64,000 nucleotides of DNA from Rhynchopus sp. YZ270_cl-10 (GCA_964035575.1 OZ037847.1:1302001-1366000), one strand, 5' to 3'. Positions 1 through 34,420 are shown, counted from the stretch's first letter. Notes: a model not told the origin generated them from the sequence alone. Program-made: numbers and translations.

Positions 1-1
1 C

Positions 2-391: not shown

Positions 392-515
392 CGAGAGCAG
401 GCGGCAGCGCGCGTTACGCTCTCCCTCCCACCACCCTCCCCCCCCTCTTGTTTTTTCTTCCCCCCCCCCACGGCCCTCCCCGCCAAAACACACATCCGCC
501 GAGTTTTCTTCCGAA

Positions 516-3217: not shown

Positions 3218-3498
3218 TGTCCTTAGATTATTCTTATTTTAGATTGCCTTCTGTTTTTTCTTCCAGCTTTTCATTAAAGCTGTTTCCCTGCCCTGTTTTT
3301 TGTCCGCTGTTTTTTTTGCAGTGGCTTTTGGTTTTATTTCTGGATGCCTGCGCCCGCTGAGGCTTGGTGTCGTATCATTGGTTTTTTGTTCACTCCGCCT
3401 TTTTTCTGGGCCCTCGGGGGTCCTGTGTTTTTGTTTGTAGTTGGGATGGATGCTCTCGTGGCCTACGGGTTTAAATATTCTACGTGACGGTGTCAGGA

Positions 3499-4131
<633 letters not shown>

Positions 4132-9813: not shown

Positions 9814-10289
9814 TTAAATGGAAAAACGAGCCTTCCCTTTTGTATTTTTATAGGGAGGGGGGTAGGGCAAAGACTGTCGGAACGGAAGCTACCCTGAAAA
9901 AGTATTTCAGAAAAAAAAAAAATGTATCGGGGAGAGAACTCACGTAGCGGTCAGGTGCCTGCTATCCCATGGGTGTTTGTACTAACAATTTCGCTTTGTG
10001 TTGTCTGTCCGCGGGTGGGGGTACGGTGTTACAATTCATAGAGGCTTAGGAGGGCCTCTGTCGCCATCCTAGGGTCGTTCTTTTCCAAGACTAAAGCACG
10101 TTGAGGATTAGGTTCATCTCATAAGCTTTTTTCGCGGAGTGTCGGTGCCTGCGTCCCAAGAGGCGTTTTGCACTATCAACTTCACTTTCTTTTGAGATTA
10201 TTATACATTGTTGAGATGACTCTTTCCTCCTTCTCAACGGAAAACCACATGTTCATATTTGTTCTTTGACGACTAATAAATTCAATCGA

Positions 10290-10640
10290 CAGTGGAGATT
10301 TGCACAACTGTGGCAACACAACCCCGAGGCAACTGCACTACTCCAACAATTTATCAAATTAGATCGTTTTTGACCCAACTCTTTGTCAGCATTGGACAGA
10401 AATCTGCAGATCAACGGCAGAGACTCACAGAGACTCATTCTTTTGTTTCCCCGAGTCCGATGACGCACCGAGGTACACTGCCACGAGAGGGCTTTCCATT
10501 TTCAAGTCATTTTATGTTCCTGCTGACAACCTCCCTCACGGTAACCGTGTGCATGCCAATGAAGTGCTCTCTGGGGGTTTGGTAACCCAGCCCTGCGTCC
10601 GCCGATGAACGGTGAGGCGTTTTGCACTTTCAACTTCTCT
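10290..10640 (+). repeat. Degenerate dispersed intergenic repeat; related copies near 22888-22955, 35129-35180 and 35917-36170
   Basis: Shared ordered blocks AGTGGAGA..GGCAAC..TTATCAAA, AGG(T/C)ACACTG..CACGAGAGGGCTTT..TTTCAAGTCA and GAACGGTGAGGCGTTT(T)GCACTTT. Confidence 0.7.
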
Positions 10641-11316
10641 TTTTATTTTTTTTCTAACAAAAACAAACCCATAGAGTAGAGTGAGAGGGAAGGGAAGCAA
10701 TGTATCGGATATTTGGGTAAAAACTAACTAATCGGTGTACCCTATGTTGTTCGAAGGTCGATTTTCCGCTGTGGTGGAGATTCCCAGACGAGCCCATAGA
10801 CCACTGATCTGCAGAATACTGCAATCAGCGTGGGAGGGGGTGCTTTTTTGCACCCTTCGACGCGCTGAGGGAGGGAGGGGGAAAGCAGTATGTTGTTTCA
10901 TATTCCCGCACCCGCCCCCAACCCCCTTTTTTTAGATGTGCTGTGCCACAAGGAAGCATTCATCTTTCAACCTTTTTGTTGCCTTTGTTTAGACTGATCC
11001 TTATTATTTGTTTTGTGGCAGTTTCAGCCCTTCTACAAAAAAGATGTTCTCAATTCATTTTTTTTCCTCTATTTTTTCTTCTCTCCAAGATACACATTTT
11101 TTCTGTCCATCCGAAACCAACGCCATACAAAGCCTAATTACCCTACATCTCCAATGAACCCCATTCGGAGGAAGCGCCCTCCACCCGCATTATCAGATGT
11201 TAACCCCGAAATGGATTGCAGTGACAGCACAGTTCCAACCTTTTCCCCCTTTTTTTCACTTTACCTCCACAACCCCCTATAGGTTACCATTTTTACCCCC
11301 TCAAATACAAAAAAAA

Positions 11317-14174: not shown

Positions 14175-14984
14175 ATGGCCACCGAACACACCCCGCTCAA
14201 CGGAAAGAGGCTTTCCCGCCGCCACTCCAGCCGCAGAAGCATCCAGTTTGTTGACGACCACATTGACATGGATGGGTCCTTCAAGGCCGCAGTGTTCGGG
14301 TTCAACGACGGACTGAGCGCAAACACCTGCCTGATGATCGGAATGGGCTCCGGTGGAATGAACCCTGCCTCCGTGATTGCCTCGGGACTTGTGGGTCTGA
14401 TCGCAGGCGCAGCAAGCATGGGTGCAGGTGAGTGGATCTCCACAACACTGAACAACTCATACGAGAAGAACGAGATCGAACGTGAGGCCGACCACCTCCG
14501 CCACCATGAGGAGATGGAGGACAGGAACCTTGCGGAGAAGCTGCGTGAGGAGTACGGCTTTTCGCAGGAGACAATCAACCATGTTTTCAAGGACATGTCG
14601 ACGGGTAACAAAGAAAAGGACTTTGACATGAAGCTTCGCCTGAACGTGAAGATGGAGATGGGTCTTGACGTGGACGACGAGAGAGGCAACGCGATGAAGG
14701 CGATGACGTTCATGATGACGGCGTTTGCCCTTGGTGCGGCTGTGCCTCTGTTCCCTTGGTTGCCCATGTGGTTCCCGGGAGCGCACCTGGCGATGTGGCT
14801 GTCTGTGCTGTGCTCGCTGATTGCTTCGATTGTGGTGGGTATGCGTCTTGCGCAGGAAACCGGTGAGCCTATGATCGCGACGGCCGCGAGACAGGTGTGG
14901 GCTGCGACTGTTGCGATTGTTTCCGTGTGGGGTCTGGGTGCTCTCTTCCAAATGGTGACCGGTGTTGCTGCCCCTGCAGCATAA
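14175..14984 (+). CDS. VIT1/CCC1 family iron/manganese transporter, copy 1
   Basis: AAVFGFNDGLSAN, GLIAGAASMGAGEWIS, Glu-rich cytosolic segment, three C-terminal TM helices. Confidence 0.92.
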   Translation: MATEHTPLNGKRLSRRHSSRRSIQFVDDHIDMDGSFKAAVFGFNDGLSANTCLMIGMGSGGMNPASVIASGLVGLIAGAASMGAGEWISTTLNNSYEKNEIEREADHLRHHEEMEDRNLAEKLREEYGFSQETINHVFKDMSTGNKEKDFDMKLRLNVKMEMGLDVDDERGNAMKAMTFMMTAFALGAAVPLFPWLPMWFPGAHLAMWLSVLCSLIASIVVGMRLAQETGEPMIATAARQVWAATVAIVSVWGLGALFQMVTGVAAPAA

Positions 14985-15752
14985 ACAGACACCTCACTCC
15001 AAAAAGGAAGGAGACCCCAACCAAAGTGTGACCGTGTTCTGTGTTGTTTGCAAGCTGATGTTATTGATTTTTCTAGTTATTTTTCTGCACTCAAGGTGTC
15101 AACGCTTTTTTTTTTTCTATTATTTGCTTTGTTTTTTTCCCGGGAGTGAAGCGGTGGCAAAAGCGTTCTGCAGTGGGCAATGCGAGGATCTGATACACAT
15201 AAGGCTTTGTCGCCGTACTAAGTAACTATCCTTTCGCCCCCCCGCTTTTCCACTGCGCACTGCTTTATTTTTTTTTTAGTTCTTTTTGTTTTCTGTATTC
15301 CCGCTCCCGCGAAGTCATCGCCGGATCTAACAAGTTCCACATGGTTTGTCTTCTTGGATGTGTCGTACGTGCGGCACATTCATATTTGTTCAAGTTTTCT
15401 TTATGTTACCCGTTTCAACCTGTGTGTGTGAGCACTGCAAGTTTGTGTGCCTCGTGTGCCGATTCTTCAAACGTAGTGTTTGTGCGGGCTTTTGGGGGCG
15501 GTGCGAGGTTATCCGCGAAAACACAAAAGCGCGTGCAATATTAGCGATGCGAAAATAACGAAAACCGAAGACGACCGAACCCAAGGCCCAATTGCTTTGG
15601 ACTCAAAAGGGAAACGACAAAAAACGTTGGACAAAGTAAAATGTGTAAAAAAGAGAACACACAACTTTTTTCTTGCTCAGCGCCACCTCACTTTATTTGC
15701 AACATCTGTATCAGTTATCACCAACTAAAAAAAACAAAAAAAACACACAAAA

Positions 15753-16565
15753 ATGGCCACCGAACTCACCCCGCTCAACGGAAAGAAGCTTTCCCGCCGC
15801 CACTCCAGCCGCAGAAGCATCCAGTTTGTTGACGACCACATTGACATGGATGGGTCCTTCAAGGCCGCAGTGTTCGGGTTCAACGACGGACTGAGCGCAA
15901 ACACCTGCCTGATGATCGGAATGGGATCGGCAAGTGGCATGACTCCATCCTCTGTGATTGCCTCGGGACTTGTGGGTCTGATCGCAGGAGCAGCAAGCAT
16001 GGGTGCAGGTGAGTGGATCTCCACAACACTGAACAACTCATACGAGAAGAACGAGATCGAACGTGAGGCCGACCACCTCCGCCACCATGAGGAGATGGAG
16101 GACAGGAACCTTGCGGAGAAGCTGCGTGAGGAGTACGGCTTTTCGCAGGACACCATTAACTCTGTTTTCAAGGACATGTCGACGGGCAACAAAGAACAGG
16201 ACTTTGACATGAAGCTTCGCCTGAACGTGAAGATGGAGATGGGTCTTGACGTGGACGACGAGAGAGGCAACGCGATGAAGGCGATGACGTTCATGATGAC
16301 GGCGTTTGCCCTTGGTGCGGCTGTGCCTCTGTTCCCTTGGTTGCCCATGTGGTTCCCTGGGTCCCACCTGGCGATGTGGCTGTCTGTGCTGTGCTCGCTG
16401 ATTGCTTCGATTGCTGTGGGTGCACGCCTTGCACAGGCCACTGGTGAGCCTATGATCAACACTGCGCTTAGACAGGTGTGGGCTGCGACTGTTGCGATTG
16501 TTTCCGTGTGGGGTCTGGGTGAGTTGTTCCAAATCCTGACCGGCATTTCTGCCCCTGCAGCATAG
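15753..16565 (+). CDS. VIT1/CCC1 family iron/manganese transporter, copy 2
   Basis: Near-identical tandem paralog of 14175-14984 with the same motifs. Confidence 0.92.
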   Translation: MATELTPLNGKKLSRRHSSRRSIQFVDDHIDMDGSFKAAVFGFNDGLSANTCLMIGMGSASGMTPSSVIASGLVGLIAGAASMGAGEWISTTLNNSYEKNEIEREADHLRHHEEMEDRNLAEKLREEYGFSQDTINSVFKDMSTGNKEQDFDMKLRLNVKMEMGLDVDDERGNAMKAMTFMMTAFALGAAVPLFPWLPMWFPGSHLAMWLSVLCSLIASIAVGARLAQATGEPMINTALRQVWAATVAIVSVWGLGELFQILTGISAPAA

Positions 16566-17956
16566 TAAAGAACCTACCTGAAACGAACAAAAGAATCAAC
16601 CCACTGCTCTTTAACCGAGAGCAAGAGGGCCTCAACGTTTTATGAACACTATATTATTTTACACCACCCCCTATATAATAACCATGTTTGTCAAACCGAT
16701 CCCATTGTTCACAAGACTTTCAATGTCGCATAAAACAAAAGGATCGCGTAGACAGGTAAAAAGAAAATGGGGGAGGTTTTTTTTATTTAGATGACTAAGC
16801 ACTGCGAGACTTAGTATATCATCTCTCCACCAATGATATTTTTTTTTTTTGGGAAAAGCGCGTTTTTTTGGAATACTGTCTACTACCCCCGTAGTCTACC
16901 CTCATATTGTTTTTTTTTTTTGTCATCTTTGTGTTATGTTTTGCTGTGCTTTTTTTCGCACAGAAAGAGAGTGTTGGACACTGTTCTGAGTGGGAATTTG
17001 GAACAATGTGCTTGTCTAGGGTCTGCGACGCGTATTCAGATTTCAAAATTTATTTTCAAAGATATTTCGAGTGATTCAGTTCAGGGGATAGGGGAGCTAC
17101 ACACCCCATTTGACGATGAGAGGCGTGTGTGTACTATTGTTTTTTGAACAACCCCAATCGTTTTTTTTTCCTCTTCGTTCACATCTGCTGGAGCGTGAAC
17201 CATTGCGAGGTGATTACCCGAACAATATCTGTACAACGTCAACCCCATGCAGATGATATTTTTTTTGCGCAAGAGACCGCCCTTTTTATTTTCGCGCCAC
17301 CCCACTTTGATTGTTTATTGATTTCTCAAATTTTCTCTCTTTTTTTTTTTGTCATCGTTTTTCAGCTTCAGTCCTTTTTCCTTGCGTCCCCCTCAGTGGG
17401 AAGCAACGGTACATTGCACAACACGTTATGTTTTTTTTTACTTGGTTCTCCCTTTTTTCTTCTTTTTTTGATGCTCTCTTTTGAGGTGTTTAATCGCACT
17501 TTTTTGTTCTCTTTCACTTAGATAGAGCATTGTTGGTTAGGATCATCTTCACCTAGGTGTTTGTGCACGAGAGGCGCATTCATCTTGCAAGCTTTCTTTT
17601 TTTCTTTTTTCTGCACCTCTCTCGAAGTCGGGAGAGGCAGGAGGACAATTTCTTTTTTCTTCTTCTTTTTTTTTTTTTTTTTTGACCAGCAAAAAATATG
17701 GCACTCTCCTCCCTCTTCTCACCACAATCACCCCACCGCAACACAACACAACAGATTTTTCGCTGTACAACAACGCCTCACCGTCTCAAAAAAACACCCT
17801 TCAAACACACAGCATTTTTTTTTTTTCCACTGTTCACTCAAAATAACTTCCATCCCGCCCAACCCCTCCCAAATAGGCAAACGACACAAAAACAACAACC
17901 TATATTTTTTCTCTCGCATCGTGGAATAACAGCTCTAAGCCTGACGTAAAAATAAA

Positions 17957-18244
17957 ATGAGGTTTGTTTGGGTGATGATAGTGTTGATTGTGTTGGCAGT
18001 GGTGACGGAGTGTTACGTTGCTGCACCTGAACCGACTGCGACAGAGCGTCTGAGCAAAGGCGTCCGCTTTTCACTGAAGAAGCGCGCGCGGGAACACAAC
18101 GTGAACCAGTTTTTCAACTGCACAAAATACACACGTGACCACAGCGAGCGGGCGGAAGAGCTACGCAAGGCAGATTGGGAGATTTCTCTGCAATGGGTTA
18201 TGTCGACTTTGGCAGGGCTTTTCGCTCCTTCGTCTGCGTCATAA
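17957..18244 (+). CDS. Small hypothetical secreted/membrane protein (95 aa)
   Basis: Signal-peptide-like N-terminus MRFVWVMIVLIVLAVVTEC; GC-richer than flanks; A-rich start context. Confidence 0.6.
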   Translation: MRFVWVMIVLIVLAVVTECYVAAPEPTATERLSKGVRFSLKKRAREHNVNQFFNCTKYTRDHSERAEELRKADWEISLQWVMSTLAGLFAPSSAS

Positions 18245-20841
18245 TGGGGCTCTGTGGGGGTCACTGCGGGGTGTGTTTAACTAATATGGGGTAATTCTTG
18301 CGCAGAATATGACCCCAATGTGGGGATGTATGTATTATTCTATGTTTTTCGCAAGAAAAGCAAAAAAAAAAATTGTACAACTAGTGGGGGTCGGTATAAA
18401 AAAAGCAGAGCGAAAACAGCGCATCCATCGGGATGACACTTAAATGCAACGTAACGGGGCTGGGGGGGTTTTGGGGGGGCTTTTTGTTCGAAGGTGAAGA
18501 GAAGTGCTCATTGTTGGCCAGCTTTTTATCTCTTTGCTTTTTTAAAGGGAAAATGGCGATAACACATTTTTTTGTTTGCGATAACACGAAAAGTTGACTT
18601 GAAATACAGCAACCTGCTCTTGACAGTGTACCAAAAAAAATGTTTCATTAGTGCACCCAAAAAGTATACGTGTTGTCGCAATTTCCCCTATTTTTTTTTA
18701 ACGCGGAAACGATTTCAGGATTGGGCGTTGTGTCCCCTGGTCTAATGGTGTTTTGTGTTTATGATGCATTTGTTTTGTTGCCATATTACCAACCTTTCTC
18801 TGTAACCCAAATGAAGCCCTATTTGATTATTCTATAATCTATGAGACAATCGGTGCCTGCATCCAGAGGCCTATGTCTGACTGTATCTCCTTAGGATGAG
18901 AATGGGTGGCGGGTGGGGCGGGAACAGAGACGAAACCAGAGGCCTGAGGGGTAGATGGCCGAATTCCCTCATCTGCTTCCATACAGGCGGTTTTCATTTG
19001 GATCGTGGTCGGAGGGGTGTTTGCATCAACCATTCTTTTGTTCCCTTTGTAAAAAAAAAAGGCTCAGCATGCGAGACTCGAGCAAAAGCCCGCTTGAGGA
19101 AACAAGGTCTAAACGTATCTCTTTGTTGGAGTTACCTGTGCATGACTATCAAAAAGAGCAAAGTGGCGCAGTGTTTTCCCGCATGGTTCAAATTTTTTTT
19201 TCAAAAAAAGCGTGTGTGCAGGAGAGTGGTTCAGCATACAACAGTTTTCGTTCTTTAGGTACATTGTCTGGGGCCGGGGCCAAGCAATAATTTATTCGAG
19301 TGAAATATGAACCATTTTATTTCACGCATGAAAAAATGGCTCTCAAATACGTTATTTCCCAGCGAAGCGAGGGAAATAAGAGTTACGAGGGTGCCTTTTT
19401 TTTGTGGCAAGAAAATGTTCTTATTTCCTCAAATATGTAATTTTATGTGACAAGTGAAAAACGTATTTGCACCGCGTCATATAAAATATATAGAAAACCT
19501 CTTCAGCTTTCTAGTGAGGTGGTCTGCAACCTAGAGGGTTTGTTATAAGACATGTAATTGTAAGGTAAGGCAACGAAGCACGGTGAGGCAACATTGATCT
19601 GACATTTTTTTTGTTCTGTGCGACATTTTTTTCTTTCCGACGCCTATTTTCTCAAAAAAAAGATTATCTTTCCACGTTTATTAAAGATGTCTGAAGTCAT
19701 TCATCTTACGTTTTTCCTTCTCTCTTTAATGGCAAATCATGAGAGATCATCTTACAAAAAAATCCCCCCCTTTTTTAAAAAAAAAAACTTTATCAATTAC
19801 GCTTTGTAAGCAGCTGCCTACCTCGCAACATTTCGAGGTTCAGCAACACCACTGAGGCGTCTGCGCCTTGTTAACTTCCCTTAAGATGATAGTGGGTGGG
19901 GGACACGTATCCATCTCTCTAGTGCCTTTAGACTTCCTCCCTTCAACAGTCTCTTTTTGATGTGCATGCACGCGAAGCATATTCATTGAATTTTTCTTTT
20001 TTCTTTTGGTAAAAATGGAGCGTTTCCCCGTTGGTTGTTCGCTTTTTTGATAAACTCCCTTGGTTTGCAAGGACATCTTAGTGACTGAGAAAGAGGATGC
20101 ATCGTAATCTCACACCCTTCCTCTCTTACTCCACGTCTACACCACAAATCCAACATAAACAGAGCACACCGCATTTTCAAACCAAACAACAACATTTTTC
20201 AAACTCCTCTGGTTTGCAATAACACCCCCGTCTACGCTCTGGGCGCCTTTGTGTCCGCATCAGGCAAAGCCAGGTGTCCTTTTCTGTGGTCATATTTCTG
20301 TCATAGGTTCATCCCCAAAGAGATGAAGCCAAATGGGTTGTTAAGCCACCTTGTGGGTATCTTAAGGTGGGGGTTTTGTTTTGTGTGTGTTAGACAATAA
20401 TTGATACACCGAACGGCTTGTGGTGAATAAAAAAATGAGGGAAGCTAATGAAGTGCAGCATGCGTTATCAAAACTTCTTTCTTTATTATTCGATGTTTAT
20501 TTCGGGCAAGCAGTGGGGTGTTTTGCTTAGTTTTTTAATCTTGTCTTTTTTTCTTTGACAAGACATTTACTCTCAATCCTGCAAAAGGGATTTTTGCACC
20601 GGTATATATCACTTCTCCCCCGCCTTTTGTGTATTGATAGCGTGTTGTGTCGAGAACGAATGCTGCAATGAATTTCTCACAAAAAGAAAAGAAAAGAAGA
20701 GAAAAAAAAGGCTACTTCCACGAAAAGCAAATTTGTTTGTGGGGGTGGTCAACAAAAAAAGGGGGAATTTTTGTAGATGTGTGTGCACGAGAGGCACTGC
20801 CATCTTTCAAGTTTTTCATTTTCTTTGGACAAACCTGGACC

Positions 20842-21387
20842 GTTACTGGGGGGGAGCTATTAAAGTATACGTATACTTTATTCGGCGGGAATTACTGCTT
20901 AAATGGCCAAAAAAACGAAAAAGGAAAAAAAAAAAAAAATCGCTGTTATTTTGGGGTTTCTAGTGGCCGAAACCTCGCGAAAACACCACCATTGACATTT
21001 TTGGGCCAATCCCAGCCAGTGGTGGGGTCAATGTGGAAAAATGAACAATTTTTTGGTGATTTAAATTTTCACAAATCTGAACCCCATCAGCACCAATCGT
21101 GTAAAAACTGATACACGCGTTTTAGGTCAAAAATACTCGTTTCTCAGCTCAAAGTGACCCCATCACAGCATGCACAGAATCCGGACCACCGAAATCAAAA
21201 ATTTTTTTTTTCGATTTTTTGTGCAAAAATTGTCGTAAAATTTTTTTAGTAAGAAAAATGTACACAAAAACCGTATACTTTATTTCACAGATTTCCACGC
21301 TCAAAATGGGTTTCCGCGCCGTATACTTTATTACCCCCGTATACTTTATTAGCACCGTATACTTTAATAGCCCCCCCCCCCAGTAAC
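20842..21387. mobile_element. MITE with about 30-bp TIRs
   Basis: GTTACTGGGGGGGAGCTATTAAAGTATACG versus CGTATACTTTAATAGCCCC...CAGTAAC; subterminal CGTATACTTTA repeats; imperfect 8-bp flanks CCTGGACC/CCTGGGCT. Confidence 0.75.
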
Positions 21388-24309
21388 CCTGGGCTGTTTT
21401 TTCTGGTGTACACGAGAAGCGTTCATTCTTCACATTTTTCACTGATTTGTGGTGATTAAGCACGAGAGGCTTAGGTTCATCTTATCAACTTTCCTTTATT
21501 TTCTCACCTGTTTTTTTCCTGAAATTTGGTGGAATTTTGGAGTTTAAATCCCGTCAAATTCCTCCGAATTTCAGGCAAAATCTAGTGGGAAAATTCTTCT
21601 CCGCTTTTGAAACCAAACAGGTGTTTATATAAAAAGTATAAAAATAAAGTATACGAGAGGGAACTCTCGAAGGGAAAACATTTATCAGCATAAAAGAGGA
21701 CTGTTCCTTGCAGCTGCACCCTCGGGGGATATTCGAGTGAGCAAAATGTGAAGCACAGCGGCAAAGCTCCCTGGGGGGGATTGTACAGCTTACGTTACGT
21801 TACATATCCAAACAAAATCAAAAAAAAGGCGTGACCGTTAAATATGACCAAAATCAGGGTGGCTTGGGTTGAAAACTTGATAGAATGGTGGCTACGTTAT
21901 TCATCTTACAAGCTTTCTTAGTTTGTTTTGTTTTTTGTTTTGTTTTCCAGAGTTTTTGGTAACTCGGAAAAAGATAAAAGAACGAATCGTTTTTTTTTTT
22001 TCCCGTTTTTTTGCATACCTTTCTGGTTGGTTTAACCCCTTTTTTTTCTCGCTTTTATTCACCCAGAACACTTCTTTACATCCCTGAGGTGGTTTGTCTG
22101 TAATAACAATCTTCGATTTGCACCACACAATTATGATAGCAAATATCTGTGTGCATAGCAAGATACATCTGCCTCTACAGATGGCAGTCTTGATTGTGTG
22201 TGTCATCAGCATTTTTTGGCATACTCGTCATCGTCCTGTCAAACTATAGTGGAGCTCATCCTGGGGTGTCCATGAAAATCAGAAAAAAAAAAAAAAAAAT
22301 ACCACCAAAAAAATCACAACTGCAAAAAGAGCAACCCCCTCAATCAGTCTACACGAACATCAGAAAAAAAAATACCCCCCAAATTTGTCTGTGTTCATGA
22401 GGTGTCAGTGTCATTTTTACCAGAGGCGGGGGGAATTTTTTTCTCTCGTCTTTTTTTTTCTTCTTTTTTTTTTTTGCACAAATTTCACTCTGTATGTGTC
22501 AGTCAGGCACATTGCACTCTTCATTAGTTTTTCTTGATGTGCACGAGAGGCACATTCATCTTTTCAAGGTTCTCTTTTCTTTTTTAAAAAAAAAGTTTGG
22601 GTACATTTAGTGCACCCTATTATACCATCTATTCAGTAGAATAGTTAGTATCTGAAACAATTTTCTCTTTTCCTTTATACACGAGAGGTCTTTTTGAAAC
22701 CTCCACAACTCCACCCCAACCCCAAATTGGCCGCACACGGCCTTCTCAACTGCCCCCCTCCCACTCACATTAAATTTTTAACCAAGTATCCCCAGAACAT
22801 AAAACTCCCAGTAATACAAGTGTATTCCAGAATATAGTCTCTATTATTTGGATGCTTGCATCCGTTGAAAAGAAACAAAAAGTGAAAAAGTGGAGAGTTG
22901 CACAACGGCAACACAACCCCGAGGCAACTACACTACTCCAAAAATTTATCAAAAGAAAAGGAAAAAAAATCTTCCTTCTGTAGTACAAAAGGCTTCGGCC
23001 GACATTGAGTACAGATCGTTATACCAGTAGAGTATAACGTGATTGTCGTATACAACAAAAATATCTGCGCATAAGCAAACCCTTCGATCAGTCTGCAATC
23101 CGTTCAAAAACCTTCGTTAGGGAGGTGGAGTAAAGACTTCGTTTTTTTCCCTTCTTCTGTTGTTGTAGCCATATACAGTTTCCCTGCACCCTAAGCAAAC
23201 ATTCTTACTTTAGATGTGTGCATCAGAGGTCATTCGTCTAACAAGTTTTCTGTCTTTTTTGGTTCATTCGGTTCGTTTCTGTTTTGATTTTTTTTTTAGT
23301 CGCAATTTATGTACAAAAAAGCAGTGTTCTGCATGCCCAAAGAATTTCAACACTTTCAAGTGTTTCCTCTTTGGTCACATCTGCAGTTATTTTACCCACT
23401 GTTTTGTTACCACGTGAAGACCACACCATTTTTGCGTAGCTGGCACACGTTTTTTTATTTTTTCTGCTCTCAAGCGAATTAAGCACGCGAAGTTTATTCT
23501 ACAGGGAAGGCGTTGTAGCCACACTGTGCCAATAACGTTCAACCCGCCTCGCTAGGTAATCGTTATATAAAAAAAAATACGACTGAAGGCGAAGTTTTCA
23601 AAGACAAGGTTGTGCAGGGAAGCTCCCTTCCTCTTTGATTTTTTCTCTTTTTTTTTTAAAATACGATAGTGGACCATCCTCGGGTGTATGCACTAATACA
23701 ACTAAATTTTCAAAAAAACGGAAAATTGCAAAAAACAAAACGTGTTCACATGCTCGTATACCTTAAATCAAACCTGAAGGAAGTAAGTACACCACACAAG
23801 TCGCCCCCTCAAAGCGAAAACTTGATACCATGCAACAGCAAACCCCGTGAGGGAGGGAGGGAACCAAAATAAAGAAGGGGGCATAAAAAACCTTTTCTCC
23901 AAAAGAGTTCCACGTAGGCGGTACAGTGTTTCGTATGAATGGTATTGTGCGTGGGGGTGTTTCACACGTTCACATTTACTTAATATATTCAGCATTTTTC
24001 TAAGTTTGCCTCTGTTCTGTTTGCTTCTTTTTTGTAAGATGTGTGTGCATGCGAGGCACTCATCATACAAGGTTCTTTTATTTAAAAAGTGTGCGTCTGC
24101 AAGAACAGCCTTGGCTGATACTTTCTGTATTAGCACACGATCGCCTTTTATGGCACGTAGCTACCTGAGTTTTTAAAAAAAGGGGGAATATCCATTATGT
24201 ACCCACTCCCCTTCAACCTCTTCTCCGTCGTATTCTCACTCCCTTATTCAGATAGCCCCCCTTTTCCTCCTCCTCCTCCTTCTCCTCCTCCCATCAGCAC
24301 ACTCTGACA

Positions 24310-25215
24310 ATGTTTCGCCGCATGGACACACAGTACGGCGGACCCTCCCCTCGCTCTGGACACATGGCAGAAACGGGGGAGGATGGGACGATCTACTTCT
24401 TTGGCGGCCAAGGCAAGAGACGGCACAGTACACTGCACTGTTTTACCCCTGCGGATGGTGTGTGGGTGGAGGTTGATACGGAAGGGGCCGTTCCGCCGCC
24501 ACTGTGCAAAGGCAGCCTGACGTATCTCGAAGGAAGTCTCTACCTCTTTGGTGGGTGGGGCGAAGGGAGGAAGAAGCTGAACACCATGTGGCGCATCACC
24601 CCTGGAGTCTGGGTATGGGAGGAGGTGCGTACTGCAGGAAGACCCCCGCCGCGGAGCAGCCACTCCTGCGCTGTGGTTGGGGCGAAGATGATCCTCTTCG
24701 GCGGTATCGGCGACAATAAATACAACGATTTATGGCAGTTTGACCCAAAGCGGTGTGCATGGTCGCCTATCTCATGCGAAATCTCACCGCCACGCAGAAG
24801 CAGCTACGGTGGGTTGCATCTGAAGGGCAACGCATTGTATCTCTTTGGTGGGTTGGGGTGCGGGCAGTTCAATGATGTGTGGAGGCTGCAGCTGCCGGAG
24901 AAGCCTGCCGACAAATTTTTCTGGACCGAGGTCAAGACGACGGGGTCAGCACCGAGCAAGCGTGGTCGCCACTCAACAGCGATCATAGGTGATATGCTCC
25001 TTACCGTGGCAGGGACAAACCTGCGTCGTTGCTTTGCTGATGCGCATGCCCTCAACCTCAACACAAACGAATGGACAGAAATCCCCCTCACAAAATACTT
25101 CGCACCAAAGGAAGCATGTGCCGTGGTGACAACTGACACCGGGTTCTATCTTCATGGCGGAATGCAAGGTGCACAGACCTGGTTCGACGATATGTGGGAG
25201 GTCAAGGCTCCTTAG
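24310..25215 (+). CDS. Kelch-repeat beta-propeller protein
   Basis: Six repeats with PxPRxxH, YLFGG and W signatures. Confidence 0.92.
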   Translation: MFRRMDTQYGGPSPRSGHMAETGEDGTIYFFGGQGKRRHSTLHCFTPADGVWVEVDTEGAVPPPLCKGSLTYLEGSLYLFGGWGEGRKKLNTMWRITPGVWVWEEVRTAGRPPPRSSHSCAVVGAKMILFGGIGDNKYNDLWQFDPKRCAWSPISCEISPPRRSSYGGLHLKGNALYLFGGLGCGQFNDVWRLQLPEKPADKFFWTEVKTTGSAPSKRGRHSTAIIGDMLLTVAGTNLRRCFADAHALNLNTNEWTEIPLTKYFAPKEACAVVTTDTGFYLHGGMQGAQTWFDDMWEVKAP

Positions 25216-25670
25216 TGGGGGGAGGGGGAGGGAGGGAGAGAGGTGTTTCCATTAGTGTGCCCATGAGGGGTGCGGTTTGCTAGCCATAGTTCGTGTTGAT
25301 TGGGGTGTGTGAGAGGCGCACTTCGTCTACACAAGTTTTATTCTTTTTCTTGTTGTTGTTTCCCTTCTGAAAGCCGTACGTTCGGCTTTCATATTCACTT
25401 TATTTCCAGGGTAAGCGTGAGAGGCTTATCTTACCAACTTTTCGTTGTTGTTACAAAAAAACTGAAAAACAAAAACCTTGACACAGGAATAGTCTCAAAA
25501 ATCTAACCTTGCTTCTTTCCCTCCCTGTGTCGGTGATTGTTGACATTTCTCAAAAAAGAAAAGGAAATGATACCCCCTTCCCTCTGCTGATTTGCAACGT
25601 GCCTATTGCTACACATACCCTGTGCAACAACAAATGCAGATTTTCACTTTTTGCATAAACACAAGACAAT

Positions 25671-27211
25671 ATGCGCCACATGGCGACGTTAGCAGCAGTG
25701 GCCTGCACACTGTGCTGCAGCGAGGTGGCAGGGCTGAGCATCCCTGGTGACTGCACGGTGCTGCCCGCATCTGGGTCGCAGACACACAAGGAGGGCTCGT
25801 CGCAGTACTCAAACGACGAAGACCTGTGCTGGAAGGTGCCTGCATGCGGGACAGGGTACGAGGTGACGGTATCGTTCTCGGCTTTCGATGTGGAGTCTGG
25901 GTACGACTTTGTGACGGTGTGGGCAGACAACGGGGCGGGTGTGTACAGCCAGGTGTCGCAGACGTCTGGGACGAGTGCCCCTGCAGATGCGAAGAACGGG
26001 GCACACGCAGTGGCGGTGCAGTTCAAGTCTGACTATAGTGTGACGCGCGCCGGGTTCACATTTGCGTGGAGCTGTGTTGCGACAGAGACGCCGCCGCCCA
26101 CACCTGCACCCACAGCCGTGCCAACAGCCGTGCCGACACCTGCCCCCACAGCAGTGCCATGCCCACCACGTGTGCGCCACGCGTGGTCGCAGCTGTCGTG
26201 TGCAGACCGTGAACACTACATTGCGGCTGTGGCAGCACTGAAGACGCAGAAGCGGTCTGTGTACGACGCTATTGAGATGTCGCACGTGACGAACTCAGAG
26301 ATTGCACACGGGACGTCTGCGTTCCTGCCGTGGCACAGGTGGTTTGTGCTCGGGTACGAGAACGCCCTGCGGTCGCTGCCTGGGTTCGAGTGTGTGACGG
26401 TGCCGTACTGGGACGGGAGCAGGACATGAGCCTGCAGACGTGTGTGTGGAAGATGAACACGTTTGGGCCGACAAACCCGACTGGGACGACGGACAGCGCA
26501 ACGTCCTGTGTGGACAAGGGTGTGGCTGCAGGGTGGACCACGTCGCAGCCGGGGAACCCATGCCTGAAGCGCCACAGCCCGATCTTTGGTGGGGGTCCGT
26601 ACGGGGCGGCGAACGTGGGGAGGGAGGTTGTGGCCACAGACTACGCGTCCTTCAGCGCAGGGTACGAGTCAGGAGCACACCAGTCTGTGCACTCGTACAT
26701 TGGGGAGACGATGACGACGAGCTGGAGCCCTGCAGACCCGCTGTTCTTCCTGCACCACGCAAACATCGACAGAACGTACGCCCTGTGGCAGGACTACCAC
26801 GGCTACAGCGCCGTTGCTGCAGGGAGCCTGACGACAACACACTACGAGGCGAGGTACGAGGGCGGGGATGTGGCGGACGTGGCGCTCGATGCCACCCTGC
26901 CCTTTGCGCACGATGCCACGGGCACGACGAGCGAGTACCTCGCTGGAAGCATCAGCGCCCGCAGCCTGCACAACATCCAGGACATGCCTGGGGGCAACAG
27001 CTACACCTACGGGGTCGACGGGCTGGCACGCTTTATTGTGGCCGAGTACGCGACGGCACCCGTGGGGGGCTGGACGTGGCTGGAGGAGGCGTCTGCCGCA
27101 CTCACCCCTGTCACGTGCTGTGGTGACGGCAGCATCGATGACGGTGAGCAGTGCGACGACGGGAACACTGTTGATGGGGACGGCTGCTCCGCCACGTGCA
27201 TGAGCACATGA
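25671..27211 (+). pseudogene. Secreted CUB + tyrosinase + Cys-rich protein with a 1-nt frameshift at about 26414 (pseudogene or sequence error)
   Basis: Signal peptide; CUB (FSAFDVESGYDFV, FKSDYSVTRAGF); CuA AHGTSAFLPWHR; CuB HQSVH...DPLFFLHHANIDR; C-terminal CGDG..EQCDDGN..DGDGCSATC; one T inserted after 26414 restores PYWDW. Confidence 0.88.
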
Positions 27212-27497
27212 AGACAGACACCAACACCACCCAGACACGTGCCCAAAACGCTTTTTCTTTAGGTGTGCTTTGTGCGCCTTCTCTTGTTTCACTATGATAG
27301 TATCATTAGCTTTGCCAGGTTTTCTTTATTCCTGTTTTTTTCCTTACCCCTGACTGCAACAGACAAACCCACCAGCGAACCCATGCTGGTGTGCGTGGTT
27401 GCGTTCCCCTCCCTCCCTTCCACCCCACCTGTACTCTTGTGCGGGAAGGCTTCGCAATGCAATCACGCTTGCAGACCCTTCCCAGGGAGAACAGACG

Positions 27498-27714
27498 CAG
27501 GTGTCCATTGAGGCACAGAGCGTCCTCTCACCAACATTGCTACTCCCCTCTTATCCCCCTTCTGTTTTTATTTTCATATTTTTTGTCTGCATGAAACATT
27601 TCATGTCGCCACTGTGCATACGAATTCACTCCTTCGACTGCCCCTACCCCCACTCCTGATCCCTTACTCCGCAGACTGATGCAGGTGTCCATTGAGGCAC
27701 AGAGCGTCTTCTCA
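27498..27714 (+). repeat. Local direct repeat of about 34 bp
   Basis: GCAGGTGTCCATTGAGGCACAGAGCGTC(C/T)TCTCA at about 27498 and 27681. Confidence 0.8.
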
Positions 27715-28441
27715 TCACAGAGGGAAACGGAACGTGATTGGACAGGGGAGCAGAAGGGGGTGTCGACTAACATAGGCTTAGGAGCATCTTACAGGCCTTT
27801 TTGTTTCCTTCTTTCGCAATTATGTGTGAGTGTGTGCACCATTAGGTGCACACTTTCTCGATAATGCTTTTTTTTAACATTGATCAAGGAGAGTCTAAGG
27901 CCCTAGGCCTAGACGCATCCTTACATAACTTTTCTTGTCAAGATGTGTGCGCAAGAGGCACATTCTTACAACTTTTCTGTTATAGTATCCACGCATTTTT
28001 ATCTCCCCCTGATTCCCCCTTCCCTGCTGCTCGATGACAAAAGGAATACATTCACCCGTACGTTGTTTCTCTTTGCCAACATTTTCCTATTAAAGATGTA
28101 TGCACGAGAGGCATATTCATCTTTTCAAACCTTTCTTTTATAGCCAATCTTTTCTCCCGCTTTTCTAAAAAAAAAAAGATTTACCCCTCCACTATTTCCC
28201 TAAAAATTATTAGAACACTTCAACATCAACATCAAATTCAACACCCTTTCCCCCCCCTCCCACACCGCAAAACGGGCAGAGGACCCCCCAACTGGACCCT
28301 ACATCCTACATCACAGGATTCATGACCCTGTACCTTAAAGTTATCATATTTTGAACACAATCTCTATTAACTTTTTTATCAACACCACCACCCTACCACC
28401 CATCTTCTCACCCCCCCCTCTCCAGAAAGAGATGCAATAGA

Positions 28442-31400
28442 ATGGGCTTTGTGATATGCCTTGCAACGGATTTGTTGGGGCGGAAGGTGAACTTTGAGGT
28501 TACGTTGCCTCAGTTGCAACCTACGCTTCGTGATGTGGAGCACGAGGCGGATGTTGTGTTTAATGCAGAGTACGCGCGACTCGGCGTCGCACAACGCTTC
28601 GCCGCACAACGCTGGCAGGTCTACGACGAAACCCGCCAGAAATGGACCTCCCTCCGCACCTCCAACCAATCAACCCTCCTCCGCCCGGCCTGCCAGGTCT
28701 ACGCCCTGCAACGTGGCTGGGAGCATGAGATGCAGGCCCCCATCCCAAACCCTACTGCGCTGCCTCACTTCACCGCACCCCTCTCCCCTCAATACATCTC
28801 CGAATCACCACAGCGTGACTATTCTGTACCGCGCAATGAGGTGGAGCTGCAACCTCCGCAAGAAGGCACAGAAGGCGACCTGGAAGAAGCATATGAACAG
28901 CCAATGAGCGATGAAGGCAAAGTTGCCGCACTCTTCCACGAATTGAACGTACGTGGCAACGGTGCGTTGGAGATGGAGGAGTTCCGCCGTGGCCTCACCC
29001 AGCTTGATATGCCGTTCACCGCAGAGCAGTTGCGTGAAGTCTTCGTAAAGGCAGATGAAAACGCAGATGGACGGCTCAGCTTTGACGAATGGCGTCGCAT
29101 GCTTGCAAATCACCCAAACCTTCGCGATAGTCTTTACTTCAGAAGTCGAGAGTATGTCAAACGATGAGTAAAAAAAGGGGTGGGTTCCGTATTACATGAT
29201 AGTGTCAGGTGGTGGTTTAATAACAAAAAGAGCGCGTGAGGGGGGAAAAGTTCTGATTTTTTGTGGTGTTCGTGAATTTCCCACAATGCTACGAAATAGC
29301 GGGGGGGTCATGAATACCAATGTGTCTTCTATTTGATGTTGCATCTTAAGACGCAGTGATTACCAACCTTTTATTATTGCAGGTTCTGGGAAGATGCAAA
29401 GCTTCGTCAGGACATGAAGTCCTCGACAGACCAGCTGGAGGCGCTTCAGCACCGCGAGCAGCTAACACGGGTATGTGCCTTTTGTTTTTTTTTCATCCAA
29501 AAACCCCCTTTTACCCTATCCTACAATACCACCTCAACCCTTCCCACAGAATGTATGGCAGTCAGTGCAGGACGATCTGCGTGCTTTAACTGAGCGAGTC
29601 GAGACACGGCGACAGGTATAGCCTCCCCTCATAACCCCCCACCTCCCTCCACAGCGAGCATTTTATAACAAGGTGACTAAACACAGAGAGGGTTGGGTTC
29701 ATCGTATAAACTTTTCTCTTTTCTTTTATGTTCTGCAGAAATGGAGGTTTGGCGATATTCCTCTATCAGTATATTTGGTTCCTTCTGGCGTCGACCACGG
29801 AACTGCCGCTCTATATTTGTGTTTCGTGTTTCGTGCACAAAAGGAAACCCTTGAGTTTTACATCAAACCCCCTTTCCAGAATACGGAACGCCTGGCAGAG
29901 TTGGTTGCACAAAGAGAGCGTGCGTCGGAGGCTGCGCTGAGTGACGTGGCGCATTCACAGAGACATCTGCAGGAGATTGAGACTGAGGCGGCGAAGGGGA
30001 GAGAGGCATGTGAGCAGCGCCATGGTGTGTACACAACGCTTGCGACGGACGTAAAGGCGCTTGAAGAACGTCTCGTGCACGCACAAACGTCTGCCGCAGA
30101 GGTGCTCAGGGAAGAGGACATCGCTGCCGCGCAGAATGCCGAGACAAAACACCAGGCAGACGCCTTCCGGAACAAAACCATTGAAAAGGCAGGCATCTTC
30201 CGCCAAGCGCACGAAAGGGAGCGGGAGGCGAAGGAGCTGATCACTGCTGCGCAGGATGAGACCTCGGTATGAAAAATCTTTGTCAAATTTTTAACCCTCC
30301 CTCCACAGAGGCTGGAGCACAGCATCAGTGTGTGCGATGGGAATATTGAGAATGTGACGCAGGCAGCGTTTGTGGCGGAAGGTGAGTTGGCGCGTGTCGC
30401 GTCTGAAGTGGCAGTGGCGACGGAGACGTGCCAGGGTGTGCTGCAGGTAGTGGCAGCGGCGCGTCTGGAGGAGGAAGCGTCCATGCGTACGGCGCTAGAG
30501 GCACAGCGCAAGGTCGATGCTGCAGAAGAGGCGATCCGCACGCAGGCGGACGCACTCACACACCTCGCAGAGCAAAGGGAGCTTGCAGCAAAGAACGAAC
30601 AGCGGATAATAGACCAAGAAATCCGCCTCCGAATGCAGCGGCAGTCTCTTGAGCAAAATGTATGAGTTTTTTTCCCCCATGAGGTGGAATTTTTCAGTGC
30701 TCTCAAGATCCTCCACGTAGGGGAGGATATTTCCTCCAGGGGCTTTTTTTTTTTTTTTCCAGGCTTTTTTGGTGGAGGATTTCCTCCATTTTTTTTTTTT
30801 TTTTGGCGGGCTCGGGTGGAGGATTATCCTCCTAGGGGTTTTATAGTGGGGGGTCACTTTGTCTCCCCCGAGGGAGCCAATATTTTCCCGAGCCTGTATG
30901 CACCGTCCAGGGCTGCACCTTAAAAAAAATTTGCTTGCGGCGCCATTTTCATTTTTTGCTACTCAAAAAAAGGGTTCGTTGAGTGATTCTGTAGTGTAAA
31001 AGGAAGCATTTTTACACCGTACCCCAATTTTTTTTCGCCTGCGGCGCCATTTATATTATTTTTTTGCTCCGCAAAAAAATAGTTGGCAATGTCTTTGGAT
31101 ACCCTTGTATTTTGCAGCCAAAAAATGCAACGTGACCAAAGCTGCAAAATTTTTGCCATTTAAAAAAAATTACCCGCCGTTGCATCAGCCCCTGCTTCTG
31201 GAAGACGTATTGGTTTTGTACGGTTCGTGGAGCGTACGGTGCAAGAGAAAGGATTAGATTTCCGTTTTTTGTTATCTCGCAAAATTGACCCGCCTCTCCG
31301 CTCTGTGGCTGTCAGGGAGGCGCGCGCGAAGCGCGCGACGACCGCTTGTTGCGGGGGAAAATTTTTTTTTTTGGGGGGTTTTTTTTGCAAAAACGAATCC

Positions 31401-31753
31401 TCCTCATTTCGAAAATTCTGCTTTTTTCGTGGAGGATCTTGAGAGCCCTGGAATTTTTGGCGTTTTTTTTTTACCACATCTGGACGATTTTTTCGTTGGA
31501 GTTAAAAAAAGAAAGATGCACAGTACCGAGTACCGGGTATTACCTGGAAAGTTTTTATCCGGTAGCAACCTGGGTCTTGGTATTCTTGGTAGTGCCCGGT
31601 ACCCGTACCGGTTGCGTTTCATGATTTAGTCTGAACGGCAGCTACACTAAACCAACCGATTTATCAAAACAAAACAAACTACAGGAGGCACGCCTGAGGG
31701 CAGAGCATAGAGCTGTCATGGATGTTACCTTAGGAAGCAAATACGCTCGGTGA
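28442..31753 (+). CDS. BILBO1-like protein; exons 28442-29151, 29383-29470, 29550-29615, 29880-30266, 30309-30659, 31685-31753
   Basis: N-terminus (ATDLLGRKVNFEV...YDETRQKW...CQVYALQ) resembles the BILBO1 N-terminal domain; two EF-hands; coiled coil ending IIDQEIRLRMQRQSLEQN|EARLRAEH; all GT-AG junctions keep frame. Confidence 0.85.
30695..31450. mobile_element. hAT-type MITE in intron 5 of the BILBO1-like gene
   Basis: TIR CAG(T/G)GCTCTCAAGATCCTCCACG (22/23 match); perfect 8-bp TSD GAATTTTT. Confidence 0.92.
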
Positions 31754-32490
31754 TTTTTTTTTTTTTCTTTTTCTTCTTTTTCAATAGATTTTTTGTAGTT
31801 TTTCTTCCACGACCGAATGGGGGGGAAGGGGGAACGGTGTGGAGAACCATGCCTTATTTTCTCTTAGAGCTGTTATTATAAAGAAGCAACCTGTGTCCAC
31901 TTTCTTTGCTTCTCTCCCCACCTCACCCGCACATTCTTTTCTTTTTGTTTCTCCATTCACCGCGACCCTACGTAGAACGAACACGGCAACCCCCCACCCC
32001 GCACCACCCCACCCTTTCCTTGCACCTCTTCTACACTCCATAGCTCCACCCTACTTCAATATTATTCGAGGCCGAATATCATCAACTCCAACCTTTCAGA
32101 TGGTAACCTCGAATTGGAGGTAGGAAGGGGGTCCACCCGGTGCACCATGTGCCAAGGTGGTTTGTGAACTTCTCTCATGTACCCATGAATGTGACCTTTC
32201 CCCGTGGTGGGTCTTCGTATGATCTCTCAATGCGAATCGTTTCAAGTCCTGGCTAATAGTGTATATATTCAGCTCGAAAACCTAATCGCTTTTGTCGGGG
32301 TCACCCACACCGTGCGTGTTCTTTGAGCCATAAAGATCAAACCGGTCGTTGTCGGGGACAAAATGATACACCAGGTTCACGATTTTTGTCGTTTATTCTG
32401 CTCAAAATGCCCCTCCCTCCTCCCTTCTCTTTCCCCTTCCTCAAACCCCCTTGCAGTACAGGTCGGGTTGGGACAAAATAGAAGGGAACC

Positions 32491-34420
32491 ATGATGAACC
32501 AACAGCAGCAGCGTTATGTTGCAGACTCCTCGAGTGGGACGCAGATCGTGAATGCGTACGCGGCGAAGAAGGCGGCGCAGATGGAGCGTGCACGGCAGCT
32601 GCGCCAGGAGCGTGAGCTCAAGAAGCATAGAGAAGGTGGTGAGGCGGCTTCTGCGGGGCCTCTTGGGTCGGCCCGCGCCCCGCCCTCGGTCGGCAGTCAC
32701 CACAACACAGGCTCGCCCGTTGAGCAGCCGTCAGACCCCGCGCCCAGCGCAGTGCACTCCCACCCCGTGTCGGTGCCCATCAGCCGCACCACGCAGCACG
32801 CCCACTCCTCGCCCCTCGTCGAAACGCCGGCGCAGTCGTTCCATGAGGTGCAGAGCCACCAGGCAGACAGCTCCTCCGTTCTTGTGGGCGAGAATGACCT
32901 TTATAAAGCAGTGCAGGTATGTTGAAAGTGGGTCGATGGGGTGGAAATCTTAGTATATTTGGGTATGCTGGTTAACTCTTTTGTTTTTGCAGGCCGGGAT
33001 CATCACGATGGACCAGTGCAGGAAGCTCTGGGAGACCCTCCAAGCAGCAGGTGCCGGGCGGCCAGCAGAGGCACCTACCACAGCGCGGGGGTACGGCAGC
33101 TCGCCCGTCCCGCAGCAGGGGGGTACTGTGTACACGTCGGCGCAGCAGCCCACACCGGTGTCGGCACGCAAGATGTCTGCAAGCACGTCACGCGACCCGC
33201 GCGATAGCAACGAATCGATAGGCGACACAGCAAGGATGAAGGCACAGATTGCCGATGCGCAGAGCAGAGACCACGTATGTTTTTTTTTTTTAATTCGCCG
33301 TTTTTTTTTTTAAACTCTTCCCCCCTCCTGCAGCAGCCGCGAGACGAGAACGGGTGGAACCTCGACACAGACGTGGCCCACGCTGAGCCTGAAACAGACG
33401 CAGACTTCCTCCGCCGCCAGGGACGCAACTTCACCGTCTCCTCCCGCAAGCCTGCACGCGAGCCTGCCCGCCCAGAGTGGAAGGCGATGGAGGAGGAGTC
33501 GTCGGGGGGCTTTGGGGACCCACCACCGGTGCGCAAGCCTGCACGCAAGCCTGCAAGCACGGCGCGCAAGGTGGCGGCGAAGCCTGCACAGAGTGTGAGG
33601 GAGAGCAGTGCCACGCATTCGGAGCCGCTCAACATCGATGACATGCCTGTGGGCGGCGGCGGCGGCGGTGGCGGAATGGGACGTGGCATGGGAGGCAGCG
33701 GTTCCGGAAGACCCAACTTCAACAGCTCCGGGTACAGCCAGTACGACACCCCCGCCATGGACGAGGCCCCCACACGCACAGAGCCCCGCAGACGCACCTC
33801 CGCCCGCGCACAACCACCACCACAGGTGCAGCAGCACGCACACTACGAGGTTGACAGCATCCCTGTGTCCTCCGGCATGGGTGGGGGCGGGATGGGTGGT
33901 GGTGGAGGGATGGACGAACTACTAAGAGAAGCAGAGCAGGCACAGAGCGAACAGCAGCGGCAGTGCCACCAGGTATTTCCTCCCCCCCCTATACTTAACG
34001 AACCGATTTTCAACCAACCCTCTACAGTGCGGACGGAGCTTCCGCGAGAGTGTCCTCAGAAAGCACGCTGCCGGCTGTGGGAAGCAGAAGCCGCGTAAGG
34101 TGTTCAACACTAGCAAGCAGAGGGAGCTGCCTGACCAGAAGAACGTTGAGAAGTCGTATGATCCCCCGAAGGCGAAGAAGGAGAACAACTGGAAGGCGCA
34201 GCACGAGGAGTTAATGGCGGCGATGAAGAACAACAAGATCGCCAATGCTGTGGAACGAGGTGACCTTCCTGCCACCGCACTCAAGAGCGTTCCCGCACCC
34301 GTAGATAGCCGTGTCCCCTGCCCACATTGTACAAGAAAGTTCGCCCCCGACGTTGCTGATAGACATATCCCCAAGTGCAAAAACATTCTCAACAAACCAA
34401 AAAGCGTTCGCCGCTATTAG
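32491..34420 (+). CDS. C2HC zinc-finger protein, ZC2HC1/FAM164-like; exons 32491-32916, 32993-33274, 33334-33972, 34028-34420
   Basis: CHQ|CGRSFRESVLRKHAAGC, KPRKVFNTSKQR, NWKAQHEEL, CPHCTRKFAPDVADRHIPKC; in-frame GT-AG introns. Confidence 0.85.

Follow-up and report, generated by a model that had tools for sequence, protein, structure and literature searches.

In trypanosomes, spliced-leader addition and polyadenylation are coupled (PMC6597758; bioRxiv 10.64898/2026.10.18.760011). The polypyrimidine tract of trypanosomatids is described as having no branch consensus and no dedicated poly(A) signal, and the first AG behind it is the preferred acceptor (PMC6597758). The Leishmania SIDER1 and SIDER2 elements carry one or two 79-nt retroposon signatures and DIRE traits, and they include sizeable antisense classes (PMC2689281). 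In the diplonemid Diplonema papillatum, genes stand in unidirectional arrays and essentially all mRNAs bear a spliced leader. The 5′ untranslated region (UTR) of this species is ~70 nt long and the 3′ UTR has a median of ~800 nt and has been proposed to be a protein platform; repeats make up over half of the assembly (PMC10161547). Diplonemid acceptors are reported to have a C-rich tract with CAG (PMC12621601). A question still to be answered for euglenozoans is how poly(A) sites are chosen in polycistronic RNA and in what way the choice depends on the addition of the spliced leader. Here we describe a family of short hairpins, each followed by CAA and a U-rich tract, in a 64,000-nt window of Rhynchopus sp. 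YZ270_cl-10 (GCA_964035575.1 OZ037847.1:1302001-1366000), to which all counts refer. The family is real, abundant and, as far as the literature was searched, previously undescribed, and it is probably a pre-mRNA processing signal.

Results

A hairpin family on the sense strand

A first-pass annotation of this DNA had quoted eight hairpin strings on the plus strand. All eight lie at their coordinates and none recurs on the minus strand, and the weaker copies that it placed near 10089, 15358, 16790, 23213, 25305, 36275 and 38021 are all present. The covariance-model check that it proposed was run within the window: a model with a seed of 12 copies, applied to both strands with filters off (E ≤ 1), returned 20 matches, every one on the plus strand and eight of them outside the seed. 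The claimed strand bias thus holds for this main family (20/20), but a related subtype with the same loop, subtype C, has five copies on the plus strand and one on the minus strand (18589-18632). None of the 20 matches overlaps the inferred coding intervals, which make up 45% of the window, in agreement with the claim that the hairpins avoid coding regions. An intergenic location, also claimed, applies to most copies, but one copy (29668-29720) lies within an inferred cis-intron.

Pattern searches point the same way. The gapped pattern loop+TTCATCTT+CAA has four matches, all on the plus strand (expected 0.00). The loop-only pattern GCRYGNRARGC has 13 matches on the plus strand against an expectation of 2.46 and none on the minus strand, and 0 of 100 shuffles reach 13; nine of the 13 are true elements and four are not. 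Since this pattern omits the U tract, the strand bias does not come from T skew alone. A structure-blind scan for loop, box and tract gave 27 hits on the plus strand and five on the minus strand, including overlapping duplicates and false positives, and a pairing permutation of its copies gave p = 0.0003 over six pairs and 0.018 over the outer four. Profile searches add subtype B copies and subtype C, for a total of about 30 copies between 10 kb and 47.4 kb; from 48 kb to 64 kb, copies are absent or leave very degenerate traces in the model and profile searches.

A search of the window against Rfam, another of the proposed checks, gave no match that reaches a gathering threshold, and three sub-threshold microRNA matches in 15-39 kb fall far under the cut-offs. 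No tRNA was found in the window. No description of the motif was found in the literature, in a search that did not cover the supplements of PMC10161547 and PMC12621601, either of which might mention it; the element is also unmentioned in the passages available of PMC11613528 and of the preprints bioRxiv 10.64898/2026.07.29.740908 and 10.64898/2026.09.29.755400.

Anatomy and subtypes

The unit consists, in order, of an outer stem of 5-7 bp, a U-rich bulge or internal loop of 1-3 nt, an inner stem of 4-6 bp, a 7-nt loop, 1-4 nt, CAA and a U tract. The outer stem and the CAA-pyrimidine tract, previously noted for many copies, were both seen; since they belong to the unit itself, the unit is larger than first claimed. 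Among 20 hand-curated copies, 19 have their CAA 36-40 nt from the start of the stem. The loop reads R-Y-G-N-R-A-R in the 15 tallied copies with the exception of 27951; it can adopt a fold with a GNRA tetraloop above a bulged purine. What separates subtypes A and B is the inner stem; subtype C shares the common loop but has a distinct outer stem with two invariant G-U pairs. In the outer stem of A and B, the 3′ strand varies less, and the 5′ strand exchanges A for G via G-U. At 80-89% identity the subtypes look like repeat subfamilies, and the likeness between copies stops after ~40-56 nt. In 21 curated copies, CAA or TAA is followed by a 76% pyrimidine tract (59% U, 17% C), a feature that was part of the curation; about half of the copies read CAAG rather than CAAY.

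The loop is reminiscent of the sarcin-ricin loop of 28S rRNA, which is GAGA-capped. D. papillatum is reported to carry ~3600 28S pieces in scattered form (PMC10161547). An rRNA-derived origin of the hairpin may thus be a candidate lead.

Evidence for an RNA structure

That the stems vary in sequence yet keep pairing, as first proposed, is borne out in part. In an alignment of 20 model-aligned copies fitted to the structure, 87.8% of 172 cells are paired with 18 two-sided changes, neither figure being attained in any of 500 shuffles; slid registers pair only 30-54%. The inner stem of 12 copies has 90% of 60 cells paired and nine two-sided changes. Most two-sided changes are the split between A and B, and so the number of independent covariation events is small. 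Counts free of inherited multiplication are non-significant, both for pairs with a two-sided change (five; reached in 119 of 500) and for further pair types (14; 143 of 500). On a plain MAFFT alignment (23 copies), no consensus structure emerged from RNAalifold, since the copies differ in stem register.

The proposal that G-U pairs favour the sense RNA is supported. The stems hold 18 G-U against five A-C combinations (p = 0.011, in a model-fitted alignment that leans to G-U), and of 23 copies, 18 have the more favourable fold in the sense RNA. Folded singly, the copies have a mean z-score of -1.6. These data are best read as an RNA hairpin, with formal covariation not established.

Three other structures were considered and rejected. 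A pure DNA hairpin is at odds with the strand bias and the G-U excess. An H/ACA-type guide RNA, judged by its generally known features, would need a longer stem and a fixed ACA/AGA box. A poly(A)-binding triple helix of the expression and nuclear retention element (ENE) type has a lower stem that closes a two-sided U-rich internal loop; here the duplex between flanks reaches -8.4 kcal/mol against -8.9 kcal/mol in mismatched flanks (p = 0.75), and the upstream flank is 44% U.

Position relative to genes

Every long gene of the window with a Pfam match lies on the plus strand, namely a tyrosine recombinase/reverse transcriptase pair (183-3217), a lipase, two VIT1 genes, kelch, CUB-tyrosinase, BILBO1_N/EF-hand and leishmanolysin genes, and two actins. 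The genes are broken by short GTATG...CAG introns, six of which were assigned via reading-frame continuity. A search with the VIT1 protein gave 25 proteins, and D. papillatum was the only named species among the matches, at 50-53% identity. On the basis of these matches and of the introns, we read the host as a diplonemid, not a trypanosomatid, and one other than D. papillatum.

The elements keep a preferred distance to six start codons. From CAA to ATG, this distance is 349 nt for a degenerate element with outer stem, CAA and U tract at 10931-10980 (ATG at 11317), 362 nt for a degenerate element between the two VIT1 genes (15353-15403; ATG at 15753), ~369 nt for a subtype A hairpin at 17552-17601 (CAA at 17588; short open reading frame (ORF) at 17958), ~241 nt for another at 24034-24081 (CAA at 24068; kelch-protein ATG), and 316 nt for a third at 28091-28138 (CAA at 28126; BILBO1_N/EF-hand ATG). 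The CUB-tyrosinase ATG has two copies in front of it, at 236 and 339 nt. One of these is a short hairpin at 25404-25447 (CAA at 25435, 236 nt before the ATG), and a G-U-rich hairpin lies at 25294-25344 (CAA at 25332), 117 nt past the kelch stop codon. Of the 18 start codons, six have a copy 200-400 nt upstream; redrawing copies within their own spacers gives an expectation of 2.1 (p = 0.0015, with a distance range picked post hoc). There are no copies within 200 nt upstream of start codons (p = 0.067).

From ~240 nt before the ATG, the sequence is C/A-rich and G-poor, like the introns of the organism. The last YAG before the ATG is CAG in 8 of 10 starts examined, 1-50 nt upstream, a count that has no chance comparison. 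The first AG after the tract, 7-64 nt into or past it, is CAG in 2 of 21 copies against 171 of 762 in the background, and all six inferred cis acceptors end in CAG; the tracts of the latter (n = 6) are 33% C. Thus, the element is unlikely to be the usual acceptor, since it is too far upstream for a 5′ UTR of ~70 nt and is U-rich where diplonemid acceptors are C-rich with CAG. It lies ~200-330 nt from the likely acceptor, which is likely the zone where the upstream message should end. AATAAA is found within 60 nt upstream of CAA in none of 21 copies, and ATTAAA in one of 21. As a separate observation, the non-coding stretches (24.4 kb) hold 17 AATAAA hexamers in sense and 49 in antisense, a count in which T skew is uncontrolled.

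Dispersal in public sequencing runs

Five public runs from two studies are known, their kind being unrecorded. Contigs of four of them (X2 was left out) were placed on 15000-34900. At the copy 21451-21492, contigs with loose ends number 69 (X1), 51 (X4) and 54 (X5) before the element and 45 (X1) and 35 (X5) behind it, with an agreement of ~0.5. This variant sits in dozens of unrelated T-rich contexts. With 35-69 contigs per run whose flanks are unrelated, the family is spread through the genome. A strict pattern search of Joint Genome Institute (JGI) metagenomes gave one match, on a 1.5-kb contig, which has no flanking stems and faces away from a frame resembling leucine-rich repeats. It was judged to be chance, and so there is no cross-species evidence from it.

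One of the runs, X5, looks like RNA, because two of its pieces leave the genome at inferred exon borders: record 31 leaves at 29151, the base that directly precedes a GTATG donor; record 32 has its junction at 34025, where CAG is common to the upstream exon end and the acceptor. Contigs of X1 continue through both points.

The remaining copies and their surroundings

All copies listed here lie on the plus strand unless stated. Further subtype A hairpins are at 20772-20821 (CAA at 20808), 22530-22577 (CAA at 22565) and, with a variant loop, 27936-27981 (CAA at 27969). Loop variants of this subtype with GCGA, in a copy without a clear CAA, and with GUGA lie at 19955-20000 and 36269-36318, and a degenerate subtype A copy at 23209-23255 (CAA at 23242). 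The dispersed variant is the subtype B hairpin at 21447-21498 (CAA at 21486). Other subtype B copies are found 3′ of the second VIT1 gene (16788-16829), in the intron 29617-29879 (29668-29720), 226 nt past the stop codon at 34421 (34609-34660), at 35556-35606 and, with a shortened loop, at 38019-38061. Degenerate subtype B copies lie at 10089-10133, 35067-35115 and 43453-43502. A short element at 19682-19719 has the outer stem with a reduced top, and a long-stem hairpin at 27825-27874, with a weak model score (E 0.5), is of uncertain membership.

Subtype C occupies 10471-10518, 35994-36043, 38189-38239, 43885-43934 and 47291-47340, and the minus-strand copy at 18589-18632 is the one clear exception to the strand bias. 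A fourth hairpin type with CAA and a U tract is seen at 10146-10190, 10599-10644 and 36132-36176. Twice it trails a subtype C copy at similar spacing (10471-10644 and 35994-36176), resembling a two-hairpin composite unit. At 29325-29382, the 231-nt intron of the BILBO1_N/EF-hand gene has a short GATG/CATC stem and CCAAC with a U tract 17 nt before the acceptor; this cis 3′ splice site thereby resembles the element in degenerate form.

Several features of the locus are of interest in their own right. At 183-4014, a tyrosine recombinase ORF overlaps a reverse transcriptase ORF and is followed by a perfect 146-bp direct repeat (3499-3644 and 3869-4014) and a long CT microsatellite; we read this as the end of a TATE/VIPER-like retrotransposon. 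The VIT1 genes form a tandem pair at 14175-16565 (93% identical), and a joint from 16564 to 15000 in all four runs points to an additional tandem copy outside the window. The CUB-tyrosinase gene (25671-27211) is split across two frames. It may be a pseudogene of a multicopy family, because other copies in the runs differ at 26420-26430 and have indels near 26720. Two divergent actin genes (48768-50132 and 52166-53524) lie within a 1.9-kb duplication that is 96% identical, and both have an N-terminal extension of ~80 residues whose start resembles a signal peptide. Repeats that are high-copy or internally inverted, at 30700-31600, 20976-21300, 44091-44383 and 46719-46936, are unrelated to the hairpins.

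Discussion

We tentatively favour, at somewhat less than even confidence, the reading that the hairpin family is a structured cleavage/polyadenylation signal that ends one message within a polycistronic pre-mRNA. What goes beyond anatomy and position in this proposal we infer. At eukaryotic poly(A) sites in general, the cut is made at a CA with a U-rich element behind it. Going by diplonemid biology, genes on the same strand would be co-transcribed, and each message would receive its spliced leader just ahead of the ATG, at a CAG acceptor in C/A-rich sequence. The purine-rich loop would be read by a protein, the stem would set the spacing, CPSF73 would cleave the RNA at the CAA or close to it, and the downstream element would be the U tract. 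Such a cut would fall ~200-330 nt before the next acceptor, the next C/A-rich CAG, which would then receive the leader. Several copies in one spacer could give alternative 3′ ends, and the intronic copy could be an intronic poly(A) site. Of the earlier suggestion of an RNA element in polycistronic precursors, the sense-strand RNA element itself is upheld by the strand bias and the G-U excess, and a putative processing or polyadenylation role gains positional support. A broader hypothesis, possible but rather doubtful, is that diplonemids evolved a dedicated structured poly(A) signal, a two-stem hairpin with an RY-GNRA-R loop, which genome-wide replaced both AAUAAA and the "measuring" rule of trypanosomes, its subtypes giving alternative and intronic 3′ ends.

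A number of points weigh against a 3′-end signal. Trypanosomatids are described as having no dedicated poly(A) signal (PMC6597758). Twelve of the 18 start codons have no model match within 800 nt upstream, and 13 of the 20 model matches lack a start codon in the range 200-400 nt behind them. Subtype C includes one antisense copy, and about half of the sense-folding advantage is compositional (-2.17 kcal/mol against -1.20 kcal/mol in shuffles). RNA-like X5 contigs (records 26, 28, 30 and 32) bridge the copies at 16788, 17552, 19682-20821, 25294, 25404 and 34609; thus, transcription includes the element and, in some cases at least, runs on past it. At 21451-21492, 35 X5 contigs continue into T-rich sequence, and the ratio of contigs behind to before matches that of the DNA-like X1 (35/54 against 45/69). 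An A tail is present in none of the six X5 loose-end rows listed (a further 3675 rows, over all runs, lie outside this listing), though contigs cannot show RNA ends.

One competitor is a signal for trans-splicing, in which the hairpin presents the branch adenosine in CAA beside a polypyrimidine tract, as in trypanosomes, and the leader is added at a downstream AG, indirectly fixing the upstream poly(A) site; copies without a gene behind them would yield short capped non-coding RNAs. In trypanosomatids the branch forms at the adenosines closest to the tract, and surplus tracts yield ORF-less processed RNAs (PMC6597758). CAAC with its pyrimidine tract also resembles the YYAAC and tract of the introns ending at 29382 and 32992, an AG follows 7-64 nt into or past the tract, and the intronic copy has a CAG 32 nt downstream. 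We consider this unlikely, since that first AG is so rarely a CAG (2/21, against 6/6 at inferred cis acceptors), the tract is U-rich where diplonemid acceptors are C-rich, about half of the copies read CAAG and not CAAY, and the implied 5′ UTRs of 200-350 nt exceed the ~70 nt of D. papillatum. In addition, two X5 contigs (records 30 and 31) break off before they reach the AG that follows the element, record 30 at most 72 and record 31 at most 12 unplaced letters upstream of 24300 and 28425, respectively. Masked repeats may also explain these stops, which hint only weakly that the 5′ ends of mRNAs are close to the ATG rather than at the element. The readings as a 3′-end signal and as a trans-splicing signal overlap, because the two reactions are coupled in trypanosomes.

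A protein-binding stem-loop in the 3′ UTR, which would set mRNA stability, export or translation in the manner of SIDERs and might once have spread as a tiny mobile repeat, has a similarly low probability in our judgement. It would account for a conserved loop on varying stems, for RNA-like contigs that bridge copies 3′ of three genes, and for subtypes that resemble repeat subfamilies; the long 3′ UTRs proposed as protein platforms in D. papillatum (PMC10161547) and the 57-69% of SIDERs that are sense in 3′ UTRs (PMC2689281) fit as well. It leaves the fixed CAA and U tract and the 236-369 nt spacing to the ATG unexplained, the antisense classes of SIDERs contrast with 0/20 here, and no target-site duplication or A tail accompanies the copies. 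Improbable to our mind is that the copies are functionless, decaying relics of a short mobile repeat that inserted into T-rich tracts in the sense direction. The dozens of near-identical copies of one variant in unrelated T-rich flanks speak for such relics, as do the many truncated copies, several per spacer, their patchy distribution, the one antisense copy, the two-sided changes that mostly separate subtypes with non-significant event-type counts, and the repeat content of the D. papillatum assembly (PMC10161547). They are opposed by pairing that is kept across three subtypes with different stem sequences, by the non-random spacing to start codons, and by the lack of target-site duplications and of likeness to the retroelement of the window.

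If the 3′-end signal is real, a structured signal in the sister lineage would give a handle for 3′-end mapping, compensatory mutation and reader-protein pull-down, and it would aid gene-end prediction in diplonemid genomes and the design of expression cassettes. Should one of the rival readings hold instead, the motif would still be an abundant one in RNA, unmatched in Rfam and undescribed in the literature searched.

Comparison with known systems

The first-pass annotation had offered, as an alternative, the 3′ stem-loop of a retroposon analogous to SIDERs. This origin is not supported. In 20 copies, the longest word shared between flanks is 5.5 nt, as it is in mismatched flanks (5.5 nt, p = 0.59), so no target-site duplications are seen. 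There is no consistent A tail, the longest A run within 45 nt after CAA being ≤4 in 14 of 20 copies and the tract U-rich. The unit is 36-40 nt long and unlike the tyrosine-recombinase element, the one such element of this window, for which there is no profile or model match in 1-4014 and no BLAST match to the copies. A remote retroposon origin of the family is conceivable, although the window has no LINE retroposon of the ingi/DIRE type, the source of SIDERs. Like SIDER1 and SIDER2, which are dispersed, degenerate, non-coding and mostly sense, with many copies 3′ of euglenozoan genes (PMC2689281), the family is in sense orientation (20/20) and outside coding sequence (0 coding, UTR limits being unmapped). 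No shared block of at least 79 nt is found among copies, whose likeness ends after ~40-56 nt between unrelated flanks, and so the 79-nt signature of SIDERs is lacking by length, its sequence itself not having been searched. Defined by pairing, 36-40 nt long plus a tract, and all in sense, the hairpin element is not a SIDER.

SIRE of Trypanosoma cruzi sits in pyrimidine tracts. As the short form of VIPER, it is likewise a short dispersed element in a genome with tyrosine-recombinase retroelements, which make no target-site duplications, but it corresponds to the A2-B2 repeat region of VIPER (PMC12278014), whereas the hairpins have no likeness to the repeat region of the window's element (3499-4014). 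The intergenic polypyrimidine tract of trypanosomatids is closer: it is sense and U-rich, has adenosines just upstream, and occurs several times per spacer between a stop codon and the next acceptor (PMC6597758). Adenosines directly upstream of the tract are likewise found in the 21 curated copies. The diplonemid element differs in that a conserved hairpin and loop precede the tract and its first AG is not acceptor-like. A canonical eukaryotic poly(A) site has AAUAAA 10-40 nt upstream, a CA cut site and a U/GU-rich downstream element. In all 21 copies the upstream AATAAA is missing and the hairpin stands in its place, and CA, the predicted cut site, is followed at once by a U-rich tract, as at a canonical site.

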